Source: a virus. Taken from it: DNA of 40,142 nucleotides. The position numbers were made by a program, and so were the translations under genes. The DNA lies in the IMG/VR virus record IMGVR_UViG_3300045988_093281. One strand, 5' to 3'. The notes below the pieces were generated by a model. The model did not search any database. It was given only the letters and a program-made list of their open reading frames with translations, and had not been told where the DNA came from. Every line of letters begins with the position of its first letter. The first letter of the stretch is position 1. This document shows, piece after piece, positions 4,379 to 40,142 of this stretch.

Positions 4379-4426
4379 CAGTCGTCGGGGAGGACGCCAA
4401 AACATAGCCTGTTGAAAACCATGTCT

Positions 4427-4466
4427 TGGAGGAATCAGCATCTTTATTGTATACAATGTCCTCCGG
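4427..4466. other. Candidate attP core for the serine integrase
   Basis: Perfect 12-bp palindrome ATTGTATACAAT (4446-4457), flanked by GGAGGA and TCCTCC, about 90 nt upstream of the recombinase gene. Confidence 0.3.
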
Positions 4467-4552
4467 TTTGTCAACGAAAAAATGTAGAATCTGGATACAT
4501 CGTCCAAAATGATGTCCATGATCGCGTGATAATTTTAGGAGGCTTGTATGCT

Positions 4553-6199
4553 ATGACGCATGGCGCTTATATTTTAGCCCGGTACTCCACCGAGAACCAG
4601 TCCGAGGCCAGTATAGAGGTTCAGGTGGAACGTTGCCGGGAATGGTGTGTAAGGCAGAGCCTCCCGGTTCTGGACGTGTTTGCCGATCGGGCGATTTCCG
4701 GCATGAAGGAGACCCGCCCGGAGTACCAGCGCATGATGCAGGCGTTGTATGCCGGCGGTGCTGACACCGTTGTGATTTATGACCAGTCCCGTATGTTCCG
4801 GAATATGGTCTATTGGTTCCAGTTCCGCGAAGCGCTTCAGCGCATCGGCGTACACGTTGTATCGGTCACGCAGCCTACGGTAGGCGGTGACCTTAACGAC
4901 CCGGCTGTTTTTCTCAACGAGGGCGTTACCGCATTGTTTAACCAGATGTGGGTATTGCAAACACAGCAGAAGGTTAGGGAGGGTGTGCGGCAGCGGGCAA
5001 AATCCGGCAAGCATACAGGTGGTATCCCGGCACTCGGCTATAAGGTGGAAAATGAGCGTCTTGTGATCGACGAGGCGGAGGCTGAAACCGTCCGCCTGAT
5101 TTTCGGGCTGTACGCCGCCGGTCAAAGCTACATTGACATCATTGCAGAGCTGAACCGGCGCGGTCTGAAGACCAAACGTGGCAATGCGTTCGGGAAAAAT
5201 AGCATCCACGATTTGCTGAAAAATGAGAAGTATGTTGGCCGGTCGTTATTCGGTGGAAAACCGGTCAGCTATGACGGCACCCGGAACGCCCACGCCGCAC
5301 GCGGCGAACACCTGGAAATAGAGTGCCCGTCCATTGTCTCGAAAGAATTGTTTGATTCCGTCCAGGCGAGGCTTGCCGCAAATAAACATCAAAATACCGG
5401 AAAGAGGGTTACGGCAGTGGAACAACCGTTGAAGGGAAAGATTTTTTGTGGAACGTGCGGCGGTGCTATGACGATCCACTATAAATATCCCGCTCGTGGT
5501 GGCGACCGATATGAATATTACAAATGCGCCACAAAGCAGCGCGGAAAGGGTTGCTCCGGCATGAGCATCCGAAAAGACGAGCTGGAGGATACCGTAGCAA
5601 TCGCTGTGCTTTCCATGTTAGGCGCCCCAAAATCCCGTGACAAGCTGTTGAGCGTCCTTAGAGACCAGCGCGATAGCCTCCTGAAGATGTCTGCCCCGAA
5701 ATTAAAAGAGTTGCAGGCCGAGTATGACAACCTCGCATCCCAGATAGAAAAAGCGCTGGACGCCGTTATGGCTGGCCTGACCTCTCCGGCCCTAATCGAG
5801 CGTACAAACGCGCTGGAATCTAAAAAAGCCCAGGTTGCGGAAGAAATCGCTTTGTTAAAATCAAACGTCGAACACTCCAGCCTCCGTGACGAGCAGCTTG
5901 CCCCGCTCCTGGATAAACTGATAAAAAGCGCAAAGGACAACCCCTCCGCGATTTTGGCCACCGTCCTCCGCGTTGAGGTCTATCCCGATACAATAAAAAT
6001 ATGGACGATTTTTGACGACGGCCCCGCCCCAGGCGACGGCCCAATCACGAAGTCCAACGTCGCGTCCCTTGTAAAATCACCCGATACCGGCAAATGGTCT
6101 TTAGGTACTTTTGTTGGTACCGCATCTGGCGTACCAACAAATGTACCCAACATTTTTATTGTTGCGGCGTTTTCCGTTTTGCGCGAACGTAAAAAATAA
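4553..6199 (+). CDS. int: Large serine recombinase (integrase)
   Basis: ATG 4553 lies 10 nt after GGAGG. N-terminal resolvase motif YILARYSTENQ, recombinase domain, Cys cluster CGTCGG..YYKC, long C-terminal coiled coil. 548 aa. Confidence 0.95.
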   Translation: MTHGAYILARYSTENQSEASIEVQVERCREWCVRQSLPVLDVFADRAISGMKETRPEYQRMMQALYAGGADTVVIYDQSRMFRNMVYWFQFREALQRIGVHVVSVTQPTVGGDLNDPAVFLNEGVTALFNQMWVLQTQQKVREGVRQRAKSGKHTGGIPALGYKVENERLVIDEAEAETVRLIFGLYAAGQSYIDIIAELNRRGLKTKRGNAFGKNSIHDLLKNEKYVGRSLFGGKPVSYDGTRNAHAARGEHLEIECPSIVSKELFDSVQARLAANKHQNTGKRVTAVEQPLKGKIFCGTCGGAMTIHYKYPARGGDRYEYYKCATKQRGKGCSGMSIRKDELEDTVAIAVLSMLGAPKSRDKLLSVLRDQRDSLLKMSAPKLKELQAEYDNLASQIEKALDAVMAGLTSPALIERTNALESKKAQVAEEIALLKSNVEHSSLRDEQLAPLLDKLIKSAKDNPSAILATVLRVEVYPDTIKIWTIFDDGPAPGDGPITKSNVASLVKSPDTGKWSLGTFVGTASGVPTNVPNIFIVAAFSVLRERKK

Positions 6200-9003: not shown

Positions 9004-9204
9004 ATGATGGAACAAGCAGAACAGATTAAGGCGTTACGCGCCAGCACCGGATTGTCACAGAAAAAATTTGCAGAAAAAACAGGCGTTCCGGCGCGAACCA
9101 TTCTTTCATGGGAGACCGGAGACAGAAAGCCACCGGCCTATGTGATTCCGCTGCTCAGGCTGGCTGTGCTGGCCTTGGGCGGAGACGAAAAAAGTAATTA
9201 TTAG
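9004..9204 (+). CDS. 66-aa XRE/MqsA-type HTH regulator
   Basis: AAGGAGG upstream. LRASTGLSQKKFAEKTGVPARTILSWETGDRKPPAYVIPLLRL is a typical small HTH. Confidence 0.85.
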   Translation: MMEQAEQIKALRASTGLSQKKFAEKTGVPARTILSWETGDRKPPAYVIPLLRLAVLALGGDEKSNY

Positions 9205-27727: not shown

Positions 27728-29368
27728 TTAGAATGTAAATACGCCAAACCCCATGGCATTGTTTGCTTGCTCCAACTCCAGCCGATCCACCATTGTCACC
27801 GCAGCCACCGCCGCCATAAAACCGTCCGTTTTCCGCGTCTTTGGCTCGATCTTTCCGAAGGTGATATTGCCTCTGGTGTCCAGCAGCTGCTTGGTGTTGT
27901 TGATGTACCATCGCATCAGAGCATCATCTCCGAACGCCACCTGCTGCCGGTTCAGCTTTGCAATCAGTCTTGGGGCGATTTGCATAATGTTCCGCCCCTT
28001 TACCTGTAGAATGTTTCCGTCCTTTCCTGCCACGAAGCCGATGCCCTCCAGCGCCTTTTTCATGATCCCGAATCGGTAGTCGTCGATTGCCACGCCGATC
28101 ACCCGCTTCACCGCCATCTGTTCGGACAGCCATTTGGCCGGTAGCTCCGGCGGTATCTCCACATCCTCTACCCAGGTAATAAGCCTCCGCTCCACGGCGT
28201 CCTGAATCGGGAACTTGATCCTGCTCAGGTCTTTACACTGACTGCAAACCCATGTGTGCTGCCGCCAGACCCATTCATCTCCAGCCAGTCCGAACAGCAC
28301 CACGGCCACAAAGTCTGTCGTGCGGGCAAAGTCCATTCCGGCCACCCACACGTCCGGCTCCCGTTTTGCCGATCTGCTGCAAGCCACAATGTTCTCCCAG
28401 GCGGTGACTTCGGTTTCCATGCTTCCCTGCGGGATGTTCATTCTCTTGGTCATAAATGCGGCATTGCCGATGTTGTCCATCCTGTAGTCCGCATACTCCC
28501 GCCGCAGCTCGTCCATCAGGTTTGGAAAATACCGTAGGCTCGGATTGGCCTTGTACCAGTTCCGCTCCTCGTTTACTTCTTCTTTTGCGTCCAGCTTGCA
28601 GATAAACGGCAGCAGCCCGTTATCCGGAATCGCTCCCTGCAAAATCTGCTTGCTTCGTGCCAGCATATGATCCAGAGGCCCGTCCCGCACGTCGCCGTCC
28701 GTTGTGATAATCGTGCTCCGTGGGAATTCCTTTTTGCCCAAGCCGGTCTTTGCTACCCGCACCACGTCATAGTTTTCGTAGGCATGGAATTCGTCAAAAT
28801 CTACCTTGCCCGGCCTTCCTCCGTCCTTGGTTTTCGCATTGGATGTCCGGAACCGCAGCTGTGACCCGGTCTGCTTCGACGTGATAACCTCCAAATTCCA
28901 CTTAAAAAACTTCTGTAGCTTCCGCTCGTTCCGCTCCATGACGTTGTAAACATCCGTAAAGGACGTTTTCGCCTGATCTTCGGAGTTCGCGAAAATGTCG
29001 ATGTGGTAGTCCTTCACACCATTCACCGGTGTCAGCAGGCAAAAGTCCTCGAAAGACAGGTATCCGTTTTTTCCCCCTCCGCGTCCCATGTACAAAAATG
29101 CCTCCGGGAATCTGAGCAATCCGTCCTCCCGGTATACGCAGTTGTGGAGCGCAAACATAAAGATTTCCCACTCGAAAAGTTTGTATGGAAAATACTTTTG
29201 ATAGCCTAAATATTTGCTTAGTTGCTCATGGTTTATGCTTAAATTTTCTGTTTCAAAAACATTTTTTACGAAATTCCCGAGCATTTTCTGCCATTTACAC
29301 ACGGGGTACTCGTCGTCGTGCTCAATCATGTCGAGATAAGTTGTGATTTCTGGGCAATCAATTCTCAA
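27728..29368 (-). CDS. terL: Terminase large subunit
   Basis: 546 aa. Walker A-like GRGGGKNGY, and a C-terminal nuclease half. Overlaps the TerS stop. Confidence 0.95.
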   Translation of the reverse strand: MRIDCPEITTYLDMIEHDDEYPVCKWQKMLGNFVKNVFETENLSINHEQLSKYLGYQKYFPYKLFEWEIFMFALHNCVYREDGLLRFPEAFLYMGRGGGKNGYLSFEDFCLLTPVNGVKDYHIDIFANSEDQAKTSFTDVYNVMERNERKLQKFFKWNLEVITSKQTGSQLRFRTSNAKTKDGGRPGKVDFDEFHAYENYDVVRVAKTGLGKKEFPRSTIITTDGDVRDGPLDHMLARSKQILQGAIPDNGLLPFICKLDAKEEVNEERNWYKANPSLRYFPNLMDELRREYADYRMDNIGNAAFMTKRMNIPQGSMETEVTAWENIVACSRSAKREPDVWVAGMDFARTTDFVAVVLFGLAGDEWVWRQHTWVCSQCKDLSRIKFPIQDAVERRLITWVEDVEIPPELPAKWLSEQMAVKRVIGVAIDDYRFGIMKKALEGIGFVAGKDGNILQVKGRNIMQIAPRLIAKLNRQQVAFGDDALMRWYINNTKQLLDTRGNITFGKIEPKTRKTDGFMAAVAAVTMVDRLELEQANNAMGFGVFTF

Positions 29369-29925: not shown

Positions 29926-30286
29926 TTCGTTATCACCTCTTTATTTCCATTTATTCCCAGCGCCCCCACGATTTTTTTAGCGCACACCCGATGCTCTCCA
30001 TCTTTTGTCGAGAGGGGGCACGGTCTAGAGGCGGCGGAGAAAATCCGGTTTTTGGAAGTGGGGGTGCGTTATGTCTACCCGCCCTCCACTGCCGCAGGCC
30101 CGCCGAAGGCCGCCGCGCTCTCGAGATCTACCCACCCCGGCCCCGTCTCTTTTTGTTGTGTTTTTTGCCGCGCTGCTTTGCTGCTCGTCGCCTTGCCGCT
30201 CTCTGCCCTGATCTCTTGCCCGTCCTCTCCCCTTGCTTGCTCCCTCTCCTGGCAATCTCCAACTGCTTTTCGGTTTGCGCCTGGGG
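29926..30286. other. ORF-poor GC-rich region between HNH and TerS; probable cos/packaging site
   Basis: No SD-preceded ORF. TCTACCCNCCC occurs twice (about 30074 and 30126). This is the expected position of cos in HNH-TerS-TerL phages. Confidence 0.4.
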
Positions 30287-30604
30287 CTACCACCGTTCCG
30301 GCGGCGCTCCGAAGTCTCCCGCGCCTCGCTCTGTCTGTGCGTGTATCTCCTCGTGGCACCGCTTGCACAGGCACTCTAAGTTGCTTTGTGCAAGCGCCAA
30401 ACGTGGTGCCCGTAAAAGGGGGGTTTTGTGATGCACCTGTTCTGCCGGGGAGTATAGGCCCCGCCGCTTGCATCGCTGACACTCGTTGTGCTGCAATTCC
30501 CGCGCCTCCGCCGCTGCTCGTTGCCACATATACGTGCGGTAAAACGCCGGTGCTCCTCCGGTCTCCAGCAGCTCCCGTACTCTCTGCGTCCTGGTATCCT
30601 CCAC
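30287..30604 (-). CDS. HNH endonuclease associated with packaging
   Basis: GTG 30604 lies 8 nt after AAGGAGG. CQRC..HHKTP..N..CLCKRCHEEIH forms the HNH motif. Confidence 0.9.
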   Translation of the reverse strand: MEDTRTQRVRELLETGGAPAFYRTYMWQRAAAEARELQHNECQRCKRRGLYSPAEQVHHKTPLLRAPRLALAQSNLECLCKRCHEEIHAQTERGAGDFGAPPERW

Positions 30605-32485: not shown

Positions 32486-32535
32486 GTCCTCACTTCCTTT
32501 CATAAAGGGCTGCCCGCCCTTGCCTTACGCTTACT

Positions 32536-32564
32536 ATTATACGCATATGTATATGCATATGCAA
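32536..32564 (-). promoter_or_regulatory. Near-consensus minus-strand promoter
   Basis: On the minus strand: TTGCAT, 17-nt spacer, TATAAT. Confidence 0.7.
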
Positions 32565-32570
32565 TATGCG
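32542..32570. promoter_or_regulatory. Nested palindromic operator overlapping the 32536..32564 promoter
   Basis: CGCATAT..ATATGCG arms enclose the perfect palindrome ATATGCATAT (32551-32560). Confidence 0.6.
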
Positions 32571-32660
32571 CATTAACCAAAAATAGAATGTTTTTTGTGT
32601 GTATTATGCCTATATATATACATTGCTGCAATATGTTACAATACGCTAGAGGTGATGTGC

Positions 32661-32873
32661 ATGAGTGGAAAAACCAGCTACGCAAGCATAAAAAAGTATA
32701 GTGACAAATCATACGATAAAATATTGCTAACGGTGCGCAAGGGCGGACGAGAACAGATCAGGGAAGCCGCTGCTGCTGCTGGGCAATCTGTGCAAGATTA
32801 TATAAGAGATGCAATAACCGCAAGAATGGCTGAAGAACATTCTTGCGGAACATTGGACAATGGCATATGGTAA
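32661..32873 (+). CDS. Ribbon-helix-helix (Arc/CopG-like) DNA-binding protein
   Basis: ATG 32661 behind AGAGGTGA, with an extended -10 TGTTACAAT at 32634-32642. KSYDKILLTVRKGGREQIREAAAAAGQSVQDYIRDAITARM fits a beta-alpha-alpha RHH layout. Confidence 0.8.
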   Translation: MSGKTSYASIKKYSDKSYDKILLTVRKGGREQIREAAAAAGQSVQDYIRDAITARMAEEHSCGTLDNGIW

Positions 32874-32893: not shown

Positions 32894-33130
32894 GGGTAAG
32901 GGCTTTTTGCGCCCATTTCCACCCGTTCCAGCGTGTAATGGGTCCCTATATACATTTTCCCGTCTCCCCGGATTCGCTGGTTTGGGGCAACTGCGCCCTT
33001 TTCCCCTGGTACCGGCCCCGCCGGTGCCGGGTATGGGATAACTGCGCTATTTTGGAGGCGGTGCCATGTCTATTTGTTCTGTCCTCCCTGGCTTGTCCTT
33101 GGGTATGGGCAACCTGCGCCCATTTTCTCC
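32894..33130. repeat. Four about 26-bp iterons, consensus GGGTWTGGGCAACTGCGCCCWTTTYC
   Basis: Copies at 32894-32920, 32979-33004, 33029-33055 and 33101-33130, all in the same orientation. Start-to-start spacings are 85, 50 and 72 bp. Confidence 0.75.
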
Positions 33131-33135
33131 CCTTG

Positions 33136-33243
33136 CCGGTTTCTTCCGGTGTTATGTCACCCTGCTCCATTTCTTCCCCGGGTTTTTCCCGGTTTCGCAA
33201 ATTTTCTCCGGTTCTCGGCTCCCGCCCGTGAGGTCTCCGGTTT
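33136..33243. repeat. Cluster of short (T)CCGGTT(T/C) motifs
   Basis: Copies near 33136, 33146, 33189, 33208 and 33237, followed by an A-rich tract at 33253-33266. Confidence 0.4.
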
Positions 33244-33336
33244 TGTCTGGATCAAAAAAACAAAAAGATTCTCTCTCCCCGCCGCCGCGCCGCGCAACCG
33301 TTCGCGCTGCCGGGACAAAAAGTTCCCATTCATGCA

Positions 33337-33374
33337 GAAAAAGCCGCTATGCATAGTGCATAACGGCTTTTTTC
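33337..33374. terminator. Bidirectional terminator
   Basis: AAAAA-GCCGcTATGCA-tag-TGCATAaCGGC-TTTTTT. Confidence 0.8.
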
Positions 33375-34812: not shown

Positions 34813-35604
34813 TTATTTCTTAACTTTTCGTTTCGGCGGCATCCGTTTCCCGTCCCGCCGGTAGAGCCGTGCGAACAGGTAAACGCTCCCGTACTCGTCG
34901 GAGTGAAACTGGTTGATGTCCGCGATTTCATATCCTGGGAAGATTTCGTTCCACGCATTAAATTCTCCGTCCGCCAGCTCCAGCGCCTTCTTCCGGCTCC
35001 TGACCTTCGTGTCACTGATTTCCGGCTCCGGATCAATCAGATTCCGGCTCCCGTTCCACGCTTTGTACGTGATCCGCTCCTCGTCCTTGTTGTGGTGAGA
35101 TTTTGTGATATACCCCACCAGTGCAGCCACCCCGTTTTGGTCAAATTGCAGCCGCTTTGAGTTGGCATACCCATTCCCCCAGAGCTTTTCCAGCTTGTCC
35201 CGGTCAATCCCACCGGAAAGGATCATGTGGACGTGATAGCGCCCTTTTTTACTTTTCTCCATCTGCCATACGTACTTCAGCTCGATCCCGGCTTTCTTGT
35301 ACTGCGCCCGCAGCTTCCGGATGTATTTTTGCAGTTCCTTTACTGCTTCCTCTTTGGTCGCCGGATTGTCCCGGTATGTAAGAGTTATGCTCAGGTCTTC
35401 CCAGCTAAAATTTGTATTGACGATCCTGGTTAGCCGTTCCCTCGCGTGTCTCTGGTTGAGTTTTGTTTGTACCTCCCGGCTCACCCTTTTTCTCGTCCGC
35501 TTCCCCGGGATCGGTTTCGCACATGGAACAACAGGATAGCAGTATGCATCCAGGTACTCGCCGCACCTGTAATATTTCAGCCGGTAGATTGTTTTCCCTA
35601 TCAT
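34813..35604 (-). CDS. rep: HUH-superfamily rolling-circle replication initiator
   Basis: Motif I LSITLTY, motif II (HUH) RYHVHMILSG and motif III VGYITKS (YxxK), in canonical order. 263 aa. Confidence 0.85.
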   Translation of the reverse strand: MIGKTIYRLKYYRCGEYLDAYCYPVVPCAKPIPGKRTRKRVSREVQTKLNQRHARERLTRIVNTNFSWEDLSITLTYRDNPATKEEAVKELQKYIRKLRAQYKKAGIELKYVWQMEKSKKGRYHVHMILSGGIDRDKLEKLWGNGYANSKRLQFDQNGVAALVGYITKSHHNKDEERITYKAWNGSRNLIDPEPEISDTKVRSRKKALELADGEFNAWNEIFPGYEIADINQFHSDEYGSVYLFARLYRRDGKRMPPKRKVKK

Positions 35605-35690
35605 TCCTGCTCCCCCCTTGTCCTTGACTTAATACACCTTACAAGCCTGATTCAGTGGTTTCCCACTGCTTCTTTTTGTGTTCCATTTTC

Positions 35691-36149
35691 TTACACTTCC
35701 TGTACCTCGATCCGGAATTTCTCCCGCATCAGCTTCTTTTTGATCTCATAGGTTCTGGTCTTCGTGGCCTTCGATTTCACGTCTTCTACTATATATAATG
35801 TATACCCGCCGTTTCCGTCCCGTTTTTTATAGGCAAAATCTGCCTTGTATACGATAGCCCGTACCCGCTCCCCGTCTGGCTTTGTGAATGCCTCCTGGAG
35901 CGTGAAGTTAACCTGGAGCCGCAAATCATCAATTTCGCCCGCTTCCCGCCTTGCCATCAGCTCCAGATATCGTTTCGCTTCTTTTTTGCTGTCAAATTTG
36001 ATTCCGTTTTCTTCCGTTTTGACGTTCCGATATTTCCCCGGTTTTGGCCGCTGGGCGGGAGCCGGTTTCCCCCGCTCCCGCTCTGCCATTTTTGCCATAA
36101 TCTGCTTCTGATACCGTTCCGGCAATTTTGAGATATCGTCGATTTGCAT
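35691..36149 (-). CDS. DUF1064-type PD-(D/E)xK nuclease-like protein, copy 1
   Basis: Internal ATG 36149 behind GGAGGTATTAC. IKFDSKKEAKRYLEL..YKADFAY..IVEDVKS matches the DUF1064 pattern. Confidence 0.8.
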   Translation of the reverse strand: MQIDDISKLPERYQKQIMAKMAERERGKPAPAQRPKPGKYRNVKTEENGIKFDSKKEAKRYLELMARREAGEIDDLRLQVNFTLQEAFTKPDGERVRAIVYKADFAYKKRDGNGGYTLYIVEDVKSKATKTRTYEIKKKLMREKFRIEVQEV

Positions 36150-36150
36150 C

Positions 36151-36351
36151 TCAGTAGTAATACCTCCATACCTCCCGGCCCTTCTTCTCCACCGGCTCAT
36201 AATCGGTGATAACACGGATCGTCGCCGCACTTTCTCCCTCTTTAATCATCTCGGCAACCTTCCTCATGCACTCCACCCGGTCTCCCGTCCTGAGCATCAG
36301 CTCCCCCGGCTCTCCGTATTCTGTTTTCAGCCGGTATACATTATATATCAT
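36151..36351 (-). CDS. 66-aa hypothetical protein
   Basis: ORF-track ORF, tightly packed (its stop abuts the next start). Confidence 0.6.
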   Translation of the reverse strand: MIYNVYRLKTEYGEPGELMLRTGDRVECMRKVAEMIKEGESAATIRVITDYEPVEKKGREVWRYYY

Positions 36352-37451: not shown

Positions 37452-37817
37452 CTAAGTCTCCAAAATTCTGATTTGATATCGCCAGAGCATCAGCTTCCGC
37501 TTGATGGTATACTCTGGAGTGCGTACGCCTTTACAATCCTCAACTACAGTCCTGCCGTCTTGCCGGTAAACAAAATCGGCTATGTAACGGCAAGGCCGCT
37601 CAATCACTTTGCCCGGGCGTTTACCGCCTCTAGGCCCCGTAATGTCCGGCTCTCTCTGCGCCGGGATTAGCTCAAATGCAATTTGCCTCCGCAGGTCTGT
37701 AATGCGTCCGGCAGCCTCTAAGATCTGCAACTCCCGGTATCGTTTAAATTCTTTCTGGCTGTCAAATGTCTGCCCGTCCGCCCGAATTTTACGGGCGTGA
37801 TACTTGTTATATCTCAT
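37452..37817 (-). CDS. DUF1064-type PD-(D/E)xK nuclease-like protein, copy 2
   Basis: MRYNKYHARKIRADGQTFDSQKEFKRYRELQ..YIADFVY..VVEDCKG. Confidence 0.85.
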   Translation of the reverse strand: MRYNKYHARKIRADGQTFDSQKEFKRYRELQILEAAGRITDLRRQIAFELIPAQREPDITGPRGGKRPGKVIERPCRYIADFVYRQDGRTVVEDCKGVRTPEYTIKRKLMLWRYQIRILET

Positions 37818-37820
37818 GAC

Positions 37821-38213
37821 TTAAAACAGCAAGTCGGAATCATCATCCGAAATATTGTCAAACGTCTGCGGTGCAGAATCGGTCTCGTTTTTTGCCTTGC
37901 TCCCAGCAAAATAGATGTTGCTGGCTACAACCTCATAGGCCGTCCGCTTGTTACCGTTCTTGTCCTCGTAGCGGCGACTGGTCAGTCGCCCGGAAACAAT
38001 CGCCATCTGGCCCTTCTCGAAGTATTTCTCGGCAAATTCCGCCGTCCCTCTCCAGGCCACGATAGGGATAAAATCAACGCCTCTCTCGCCATTCTGGGCC
38101 TTGTAGTCCTGATCAACAGCAAGGTTAAAGGATGATACCGCAATCCCGCTCTGTGTCCGTCTCAGCTCCGGGTCAGCCACAAGCCGCCCATCTAGTGTGA
38201 TGTGATTAAGCAT
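37821..38213 (-). CDS. ssb: Single-stranded DNA-binding protein
   Basis: OB-fold N-terminus MLNHITLDGRLVADPELRRTQSG and an acidic C-terminal tip DDDSDLLF. Confidence 0.95.
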   Translation of the reverse strand: MLNHITLDGRLVADPELRRTQSGIAVSSFNLAVDQDYKAQNGERGVDFIPIVAWRGTAEFAEKYFEKGQMAIVSGRLTSRRYEDKNGNKRTAYEVVASNIYFAGSKAKNETDSAPQTFDNISDDDSDLLF

Positions 38214-38625
38214 TGTGCCCTCCTTTATGGTATACCAGCCTGTCCGGATTCCACCCCGGATATCTGGCTCTCAAATAGTCCTCAATGATCCGCTTGTAAG
38301 CGGGTCGTAATGCGCTCTGGTCATACTGCCGGTGGCACCTGTCGCACAGCGTCACGATATTCTGCTCCACGCCCAGCCCCAGGGCGGAGCGTGGGATGTA
38401 GTGGCACCATGGGTTCCCCGGTGCGCCGCAGATAATGCAGCGCCCATTGTCTCGCTCCCGGACGATCCGTTTAACCTCTGCTGGGATAGAGGTGGCTCTT
38501 TTAACGCTCCCCATGCCAGCCCGTCCGCAATCGCCGCCAGCGCGCCCGCGCTCATCATCTTCCCTCTCGATATATACGCACTGATGCTTGACACTGACAC
38601 TCCGCTCTTTCTGCTTTGTTTTCAT
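38206..38625 (-). CDS. HNH endonuclease (early-arm copy)
   Basis: CIICG..WCHYIPRS..NIVTLCDRCHRQYD. Confidence 0.9.
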   Translation of the reverse strand: MKTKQKERSVSVKHQCVYIEREDDERGRAGGDCGRAGMGSVKRATSIPAEVKRIVRERDNGRCIICGAPGNPWCHYIPRSALGLGVEQNIVTLCDRCHRQYDQSALRPAYKRIIEDYLRARYPGWNPDRLVYHKGGHNA

Positions 38626-39738: not shown

Positions 39739-40142
39739 CACAGCTCCTCCTCATCAAGCTCAATCTGAGTCTCTGCAAGGTCTGCGGCAAGCTGGTATGC
39801 TTTTCCGTGCTTGCTGTCACCATGGGTCTGCTTGACCTTCACGCGAAACTCAGCCACCGTGCCACGGAAGCATCCGCAGCAAACGGAGATAGCAAAGCCA
39901 GTCAAAAACTTCGTGCGGAAGAATGTAGTCGTATCATCACGGCTGCCAATTGGACTAACAGTCAATACATGGTCTGTTTTGGACACCCGGGCCTCGCCGA
40001 ACACCTGGGCCTCGCCGAACACCCGGGCCTTGCCGAACACCTGGGCCTTGTCGGACACCCGGGCCTCGCCGAACACCCAGGCATCGCCGGACACCCGGGC
40101 CTCGCCGAACACCCAGGCATCGCCGGACACCCGGGCCTCGCC
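39738..40142 (-). CDS. C-terminal part of the hexad-repeat protein (continues from 1..288)
   Basis: Frame is open at 40142. Hexads ARVSGD/AWVFGE/ARVSDK/AQVFGK, then a non-repeat tail ..TTTFFRTKFLTGFAISVCCGCFRGTVAEFRVKVKQTHGDSKHGKAYQLAADLAETQIELDEEEL. Confidence 0.8.
   Translation of the reverse strand, partial: GEARVSGDAWVFGEARVSGDAWVFGEARVSDKAQVFGKARVFGEAQVFGEARVSKTDHVLTVSPIGSRDDTTTFFRTKFLTGFAISVCCGCFRGTVAEFRVKVKQTHGDSKHGKAYQLAADLAETQIELDEEEL
39975..40142. repeat. Tandem 18/36-nt coding repeats, second block
   Basis: Same unit family as 1..132. Confidence 0.9.
40095..40142. repeat. 48-nt terminal overlap identical to bases 1..48
   Basis: Direct comparison of both ends, base by base. Confidence 0.9.

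Follow-up and report, generated by a model that had tools for sequence, protein, structure and literature searches.

What recognises the repeated, gene-free DNA found at 32.89–33.25 kb of a tailed-phage sequence from IMG/VR? This sequence (hereafter the window, the whole stretch of 40.1 kb that was analysed; 53.5% GC, genes mostly on the minus strand) is a temperate siphovirus-like genome, and the locus in question lies between a plus-strand gene for a small protein of the ribbon-helix-helix (RHH) type and an early/replication operon on the minus strand. It contains four direct, same-strand repeat units. An initial annotation had proposed three roles for such an array, namely a replication origin, a partition site or a site that titrates a regulator; regulator titration fits best, and neither origin nor partition found support. 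We tentatively propose that the locus is a decaying tandem array of modules, each made of a 26-bp host-type box and a CCGG-rich spacer, the box being one that gut and rumen Oscillospiraceae have in their Wood-Ljungdahl operon leader.

Architecture of the repeat array

The units start at 32894, 32978, 33029 and 33101, giving start-to-start distances of 84, 51 and 72 bp. The four same-orientation repeats that had been annotated are thus present, with the last of their spacings given correctly and the first two (85 and 50) to be amended. They differ from one another by 1-nt indels; an ungapped register yields only 62–76% identity, and the 26-mer consensus of the annotation, at up to three mismatches, retrieves one copy only in the region (0 in 100 shuffles). 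TRF reported no tandem array here, and the irregular spacing and diverged units set these repeats apart from CRISPR or type III ToxI-like arrays. No further box was found anywhere else in the window. Array-bearing relatives comprise six IMG/VR contigs, L043, one contig from a metagenome-assembled genome (MAG), ten metagenome contigs and L065. The repeat family recurs in about 17 related phage contigs, which share the same order of RHH gene, two to six units, pyrimidine-rich tract and terminator. The elements of the window are as follows.

32894–32919 (+), unit c1, GGGTAAGGGCTTTTTGCGCCCATTTC; right half-site perfect, left imperfect; only in the window, L001 and L005
32978–33004 (+), unit c2, TGGTTTGGGGCAACTGCGCCCTTTTCC; first unit after the RHH stop codon in most relatives
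33005–33031 (+), GC-rich hairpin spacer, CCTGGTACCGGC-CCC-GCCGGTGCCGGG; −23.8 kcal/mol, z −4.3
33029–33054 (+), unit c3, GGGTATGGGATAACTGCGCTATTTTG; degenerate
33054–33068 (+), relic of the ribosome-binding site (RBS) and start codon of the RHH gene, GGAGGCGGTGCCATG; equals the genuine RHH RBS and start
33101–33127 (+), unit c4, GGGTATGGGCAACCTGCGCCCATTTTC; best-kept box, 7-bp inverted repeat ATGGGCR/CGCCCAT with a 5-nt spacer
33136–33242 (+), pyrimidine-rich tract with four CCGGTT motifs; segment conservation 0.65–0.88
33254–33267, A tract
33279–33295, invariant GC block, CCGCCGCCGCGCCGCGC
33292–33307, 16-nt quasi-palindrome, GCGCAACCGTTCGCGC
33338–33372, bidirectional intrinsic terminator; two 16-nt arms (33338–33353 and 33357–33372), 94% complementary, kept in all relatives

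The A-rich tract, the RHH gene and the bidirectional terminator are all present as the neighbours that the annotation had named, and the terminator closes both the RHH transcript (plus strand) and the operon running from rep to a 152-aa gene (minus strand). Open reading frames (ORFs) of 84–153 aa overlap the region. Since indels of 1–2 nt break them in the relatives, the region is non-coding, and the long ORFs had rightly been dismissed as not genuine.

A box in the host Wood-Ljungdahl leader matches the phage units

When 185,579 species genomes were scanned for the exact pattern, the hits were one phage relative and one chromosomal locus, the latter in two MAGs of Oscillospiraceae (L051 and L052; Faecousia sp.), where GGGTATGGGCGAACTGCGCCCATTTCC lies between the promoter and the cooC-CdhD (acetyl-CoA synthase) operon. 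Because about two chance hits are expected for such a pattern, the host link was tested independently: CooC homologues were fetched by protein and the DNA upstream of their genes was read. This search gave five more leader variants, making seven from several lineages, and in all seven a −10 hexamer is followed, after exactly 14 nt, by ATGGG[CT]G-N5(9)-[CT]GCCCA. The box precedes cooC, or MTHFR where that is the first gene of the operon (MTHFR-cooC-CdhD). In gut and rumen Oscillospiraceae, it occurs once per leader of the Wood-Ljungdahl operon, with the consensus ATGGG[CT]G-N5-[CT]GCCCA and T-rich flanks.

The L051/L052 box agrees with phage c4 at 25–27 of 27 nt, and the L074-type box, which was found without the pattern, matches c2 and a unit of L065 at 18 of 20 nt. 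Both matches (L051 with c4; L074 with c2 and the L065 unit) were attained by 0 of 400 dinucleotide shuffles each, and in the plus orientation only. Besides, host variants show the same CTGCGCCC to CTATGCCC alternation as phage c3, and c4 keeps the positions conserved in the seven host leaders (TATGGG, CTGCGCCCAT) in nearly all relatives, L065 included. The seven leader variants with their fixed position and the shuffle tests therefore indicate that the phage unit is a copy of a conserved host leader/operator box. Judged from these alignments, the phage carries promoter-less copies of the leader box of a host operon. Indeed, no −10 hexamer at the host spacing was found beside the phage units on either strand, and the phage box does not overlap a phage promoter that it could control. 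As for the nature of the factor, a dimeric DNA-binding repressor would fit the 7-5-7 dyad and the fixed site immediately after the −10 hexamer. Regulators of the Wood-Ljungdahl pathway are largely uncharacterised, even in model acetogens (PMC6873888).

Some further observations concern the host locus and the distribution of the box. The host promoter (L051, L052, L074–L092; 130–150 nt before cooC or MTHFR) is unusually conserved, with AAATTRTGGTTGAA at −35 and a TGTG- or TATG-extended −10, and a conserved 75-aa ORF is always placed just upstream of the box; its product belongs to no Pfam family, and no homologue of it is encoded in the window. The promoter of the phage RHH gene was considered as a homologue of this host promoter and was rejected, the shared GATGTG..TATA..ACTATGCC being not above chance in nine comparisons. 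Host boxes of the L074 and L084 types were not found in IMG/VR phages. A looser pattern returned 22 single-copy IMG/VR matches (L015–L042, e.g. L030 2474–2493), which were discarded as chance matches to one unrelated high-GC prophage locus; these 22 contigs have cgtGGGTATGGGTGAACTGCGCCttttt in common, some 20 nt before a small gene, and represent one locus sampled repeatedly. Finally, the only binned phage relative is a 3.3-kb contig labelled Oribacterium.

Does the box act in RNA?

The leader that holds the host box is transcribed, the box lying in the same sense and some 7 nt from where transcription probably starts, and all phage units are sense to the RHH transcript, upstream of a strong terminator. 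Such a placement would suit units of hairpin plus U-run that are transcribed from the RHH promoter and act as RNA in a 3′ untranslated region (3′UTR) of about 460 nt of the RHH messenger, whether as partial terminators, as stabilisers of the mRNA 3′ end or as a sponge that captures a host RNA-binding protein specific for the 5′ hairpin in the Wood-Ljungdahl leader. Host boxes do form hairpins on the sense strand (L051, −18.4 kcal/mol and z −3.6; L074, z −1.9; L084, z −2.1), host variants keep U·G/G·U pairing with a 9-nt loop in L074, and 5′ GGG and 3′ CCC flanks would let the phage unit form a longer helix. However, c1, c2 and c3 form no in-register hairpin yet retain both sequence halves, the c4 of the window carries an A·C mismatch, and the T-runs are too short for the terminator scan. 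A DNA operator would account no less well for the fixed 14 nt between the −10 hexamer and the box.

Global tests also speak against an RNA role. Rfam 15 gave no match at gathering score for the region or the host leader, with noise only at E up to 5. RNAalifold on 11 relatives proposed 108 pairs, of which one showed a two-sided change, with an unfavourable covariance term. Both strands of the region fold equally well, about three standard deviations better than shuffles (z about −3), and this excess on both strands is due to the terminator and local palindromes. The array is not a recognisable structured RNA, and we consider it quite unlikely that the units act in this form.

Growth and decay of the array in relatives

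In the relatives, unit spacings of 52/57/40, 52/72 and 51 bp are found (whole range 40–109 bp), and the number of units varies from two to six. L004 (4860–5460, minus orientation) displays a tandem duplication in the order RHH, three units, RHH, three units, its second RHH copy being without an operator region of its own; L063 contains a clean c2/c4 fusion, and the L054 group an additional partial unit. The RBS/start relic that follows c3 reads GGAGGTGATCC[CA][GA]TG in relatives, and c3 together with its flanking DNA is similar to the 5′UTR of the RHH gene. This relic and the duplication in L004 therefore indicate that the array arose by duplication of the RHH cassette. The array grew and shrinks through unequal recombination of this cassette.

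Decay of the copies is visible at several places. Most phage genomes combine one near-perfect palindrome (c4) with one to three weaker copies. Measured against the strict host consensus, c4 is as a rule the sole intact unit of a phage genome (two or three are intact in L043), and in the weaker units the right half-site is perfect and the left imperfect. In c3, conservation reaches 0.96 over the 5′ half, and the 3′ half is drifting through transitions (GCG, ATA, GTG, ATG). The spacer at 33005–33031, conserved in relatives with G·T-type changes in L006, is part of the repeated module of box and CCGG-rich spacer. In the pyrimidine-rich tract, the exact CCGGTT motif occurs four times (33136, 33189, 33208 and 33237) and not five times as annotated (Poisson P about 4e-6 for at least four in 107 bp, about 0.0015 when corrected for windows). 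Alignment A1, built from the seven closest contigs, shows two of the four without any change, and the first is replaced in the L054 group. Since 33202–33230 aligns to the spacer between c2 and c3 (p about 0.008), the tract was probably built from inter-unit spacer copies that have since decayed.

Could the units be neutral scars? On this alternative, they would be left by repeated unequal recombination and cassette swapping of the RHH module, including a once-captured host fragment, would have no function today and would serve at most as homology anchors for the exchange of RHH/operator alleles. The complete duplication in L004, the relic after c3 with its 5′UTR-like flank, the variable copy number with the L063 fusion and the L054-group partial unit, the free drift of the c3 3′ half and the spacer-like CCGGTT tract would all be expected, as would the differing RHH alleles between the same conserved flanks. 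Yet c4 keeps its host-conserved positions in nearly all relatives, even in L065, where the array persists beside a Rep of only 65% identity, and unit cores are better conserved than spacers (0.88–0.96 versus 0.65–0.86). Moreover, two unit types match the boxes of two host lineages, which a single old capture followed by decay explains poorly. Neutral scarring is a serious rival, although we hold it to be unlikely.

Next to the array, the quasi-palindrome GCGCAACCGTTCGCGC is present as its exact reverse complement GCGCGAACGGTTGCGC in L002, L057, L059, L060 and L064, which corresponds to a small inversion between the invariant GC block and the terminator. The folding energy of 33254–33307 is no better than that of shuffles. 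The GC block and A tract were also considered as a second minus-strand terminator and rejected, with a gap of 12 nt between hairpin and U-run and an energy equal to shuffles.

The adjacent RHH protein and its upstream operators

The nearest protein candidate for binding the units is encoded immediately upstream of them, and its gene is preceded by repeats of its own. The two elements of the window and the upstream repeats that accompany each allele of the protein are listed below.

32661–32873 (+), RHH-type small DNA-binding protein, 70 aa; stop codon 20 nt before unit 1
32535–32635, divergent promoter/operator region; two 34-nt AT-rich repeats (32535–32568 and 32602–32635) and the palindrome TGTATATGCATATGCA (32548–32563)
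Allele KILLTV (window), upstream repeat TATGCATATGCA
Allele NIMV, upstream repeat TAAATTAAC
Allele SITL, upstream repeat GTCTACTTAT
Allele AFTV, upstream repeat TAAGCCTGCATATA
Allele SFTV, upstream repeat TATGTCTACATATA
Allele SIKL, upstream repeat TATAAGCC..CTTATA

The tentative assignment of the protein comes from a Pfam NikA-like match (3.1e-4; 21.3 bits, below the cut-off of 27), from phrog_13890 (2.3e-12) and from a profile of the RHH alleles searched against PDB, all six matches of which are RHH proteins and all weak (best E 0.012). RHH proteins commonly bind repeated sites, the array adjoins an RHH-type gene in every array-bearing relative, and a 19-bp palindrome would be plausible for a dimer of dimers. 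The protein could accordingly be imagined to bind the four units, either as a centromere-like site of the ParG/omega kind or for autoregulation. Variation among the relatives points elsewhere. The six alleles, which differ in the predicted DNA-reading beta strand, each come with their own set of three upstream repeats, but the downstream units are practically identical in L054 (NIMV), L057 (AFTV) and L064 (SFTV) despite their different alleles. Distant homologues (L008, L014) have repeated sites upstream and none downstream, and array-less L069 has an RHH-like gene at the equivalent position followed by the terminator only.

Because it is the upstream repeats, and not the array, that track the allele, the RHH protein most likely regulates its own divergent promoter region (32504–32660), and the repeats and palindrome at 32535–32635 are probably its operators. 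A partition function, which the annotation had considered with the RHH protein as binder, is further disfavoured: Pfam and PHROGs scans of roughly 40 ORFs revealed no ATPase of the ParA type, the array is not one of regular short repeats, and the phage integrates by a serine recombinase. Within these roughly 40 ORFs, the scans agree with the annotated absence of a recognisable ParA or iteron-type initiator. Binding of the units by the neighbouring RHH protein is, in our opinion, extremely improbable.

The RHH gene and its three upstream repeats (32504–32873 in the window; also in L002–L006, L043 and L053–L065) form a swappable specificity cassette between conserved flanks. This cassette resembles an immunity region, yet it is separate from the region of the HTH_3 gene and the integrase.

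A candidate replication origin upstream of rep

Whether the array serves as replication origin can be addressed through the Rep protein of the phage, whose annotation as an HUH Rep is confirmed by two families, and through the DNA next to its gene.

34813–35604 (−), HUH Rep; PF23343 at 6.7e-18, phrog_3584 at 5e-63
35627–35668 (−), candidate double-strand origin of Rep, directly upstream of rep; hairpin CAGTGG-GAAA-CCACTG (35653–35668), then AATCAGGCTTGTAAGGTGTATTAAGT (35627–35652)

A 6-bp hairpin CAGYGG-GNAA-CCRCTG followed by an invariant GGCTTGTAAGGWGTATTAAGT is found in seven of the eight Rep relatives checked (56–100% identity), and the element is diverged in L068 (Rep 46% identity). In the alignment of the hairpin, 97.8% of cells are paired versus 28–52% in slid controls, and one pair occurs as CG, GC and UA. 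The CTTG-TA core of the element recalls the nick sites of pC194 and phiX174. We consider 35627–35668 a likely rolling-circle double-strand origin or nick site of PF23343-type Reps in tailed phages; nicking by Rep would be expected within GGCTTGTAAGG and nowhere in the array.

For the array itself, an iteron function at a phage origin (double-strand, single-strand/priming or theta-type), with the A tract as unwinding element, might be suggested by its direct repeats with dyads, its A-rich tract and GC block, and its non-coding position 1.6 kb downstream of an HUH Rep gene. Some HUH Reps of plasmids and single-stranded DNA viruses do bind direct repeats (the bind locus of pMV158, the iterons of geminiviruses), and the flipping 16-nt quasi-palindrome suggests hairpin extrusion. 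The element directly upstream of rep, with its compensated hairpin, is nonetheless a far better candidate. Five Rep relatives (L066, L069, L071, L072 and L073; 56–65%) keep it and are without the array; such array-less relatives are also without a comparable non-coding block. Local alignment detected no similarity between the array and the rep-upstream element, and no known nick-site consensus (pC194, phiX174, pMV158, pT181, f1, geminivirus) was found near the region. The idea that the units are copies of the origin core, suggested by GGCTGGTATGGGGGTATAACTAAT in L068, was dropped when local alignment proved no better than shuffles. Finally, irregular spacing, variable copy number and decaying copies of uneven integrity argue against a phased initiator complex, and the unit equals a host leader box. 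The array is probably not a replication origin, contrary to what had been envisaged for the HUH Rep, and we regard an iteron role for its units as highly unlikely.

Genome setting

Gene calls rest on PHROG and Pfam scans of about 40 ORFs, a subset of those in the window. The features that frame the locus are the following.

4412–6199, large serine integrase (PHROG/Pfam)
9004–9204, HTH_3 protein (PHROG/Pfam)
27728–29368, TerL
30287–30604, first HNH endonuclease gene, adjoining terS (PHROG/Pfam)
38206–38625, second of the two HNH endonuclease genes
35691–36230 and 37452–37817, two RusA-like Holliday-junction resolvase genes (phrog_190)
1–137 and 39983–40142, one 18-nt tandem repeat, CCGGGCCTCGCCGAACAC, about eight copies

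A recombination directionality factor, endolysin, TerS and SSB were identified by the same scans, which gave no family match for neighbouring phage proteins of 47, 97, 102, 152, 158 and 196 aa. A 106-aa phage protein aligns with sigma-70 region-4-like proteins, which are also present in array-less relatives. No tRNAs were found. As the same 18-nt repeat occupies both ends, the window was probably assembled as a circle; the cut lies probably inside a repeat-containing (collagen-like?) gene adjoining the phrog_7964 protein. An HNH gene beside terS is the usual layout for HNH-assisted cos cleavage. Three independent metagenome or IMG/VR contigs of relatives (L054; L053; L043/L055) begin between terS and the HNH gene, at about 30092, 30181 and 30257, and others start elsewhere, which hints faintly at a cos site there (about 30090–30260) and not in the array.

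More than 3,500 TerL homologues at E < 1e-100 occur in public assemblies, the best 120 all being at least 97% identical, and their contigs reach about 55 kb with many near 40 kb. The phage family is very common and gut-associated. A search of the region against known phages and plasmids by DNA similarity gave no match.

Discussion

Our analysis began with a repeat array of the kind often linked to replication or partition and ended at the leader of a host carbon-fixation operon. Since the units copy the host box, the stretch probably binds a host regulator and neither the phage RHH protein nor Rep. The account that we favour, still short of firm belief, is that the cluster, with one strong and several weak copies of the host operator, would be bound by a putative host factor and act as a sink or a roadblock. 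The factor that recognises the leader box would also bind the phage boxes, and its action would take place at the level of DNA rather than RNA. In a first option, the promoter-less cluster would be a sink whose capacity grows with amplification of the phage genome and which would de-repress the host acetyl-CoA pathway. In a second option, the bound protein would separate the RHH transcript from the rep operon that converges on it, as a roadblock or insulator. Meanwhile, the RHH protein would control its own divergent promoter through allele-specific upstream operators, and Rep would start replication at the conserved hairpin element at 35.63–35.67 kb. The loose spacing and variable copy number of the units suit a dosage-type sink and not a phased nucleoprotein complex. 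The more specific proposal, that the operator mimics titrate a putative Wood-Ljungdahl repressor and so de-repress acetogenesis during infection with no metabolic gene encoded, seems doubtful.

Several observations weigh against binding by a host factor. Units are conserved only modestly better than spacers, and one intact box in most genomes, with a mismatch in the c4 of the window, is a thin basis for a multi-copy sink. The RBS/start relic and the flux in copy number also fit neutral duplication scars. The box forms a hairpin on the sense strand as well, and two host variants keep its pairing through G·U, which would suit action in RNA. Regarding the host link, its significance hangs on two results, the extended match and the independently found L074 box, given the chance hits expected for the pattern, and the other types of host box were found in no other phage family. 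The connection of the phage to Oscillospiraceae rests on the box itself.

If the cluster works as we suggest, it would represent a tactic of manipulating or sensing the host through the number of sites, and it would be aimed at the operon with which uncultured gut acetogens form acetyl-CoA from CO2. Were titration true, widespread gut phages would reprogram host carbon fixation without metabolic genes, and the phage box could be used as bait for the Wood-Ljungdahl regulator. Besides, a cis element that had not been described before emerges from the comparison, always at the same place in the Oscillospiraceae Wood-Ljungdahl leader, and the work also points to a probable rolling-circle origin of PF23343-type Reps in tailed phages.

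How does this locus compare with known systems? Temperate phages with boxes for host regulators are well documented, such as LexA boxes in CTXphi, coliphage 186 and GIL01 or Fur and CRP boxes in Stx phages. As in these cases, phage DNA here carries the recognition sequence of a presumed host regulator, which would link the phage to a host circuit. Unlike them, where a single box lies over a phage promoter, the present array offers two to six promoter-less boxes between convergent transcripts, and its presumed host target is a central carbon-fixation operon. The borrowing of a host box by a phage is therefore already known; what is new is a promoter-less, multi-copy and decaying cluster of a carbon-fixation box.

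Two other families of sites share the array's general layout. Direct repeats of about 20–26 bp with dyads and an A-rich tract near a replication gene recall iteron origins (lambda ori, theta plasmids) and the repeats bound by rolling-circle Reps, but here the spacing is irregular, copies decay and vary in number, phages with close Reps are without them, and a separate hairpin with a nick-like element stands at rep. The RHH gene and its upstream operators, in turn, resemble the immI region of P22 (Arc, Mnt), in which a small regulator of the RHH type occupies a divergent promoter outside the main CI/Cro switch and specificity co-varies between operator and protein; this likeness covers only that part of the locus, immI being without a downstream box cluster.

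The closest parallels for the proposed mode of action may be datA of Escherichia coli, which binds DnaA, and incA of P1, which binds RepA. There too, clustered promoter-less sites of mixed quality and loose spacing act by their number, and amplification of copy number raises the capacity of the sink. While datA and incA titrate the initiator of their own cell or replicon, the presumed target of the phage array would be a transcription regulator of the host, titrated by sites that are viral.

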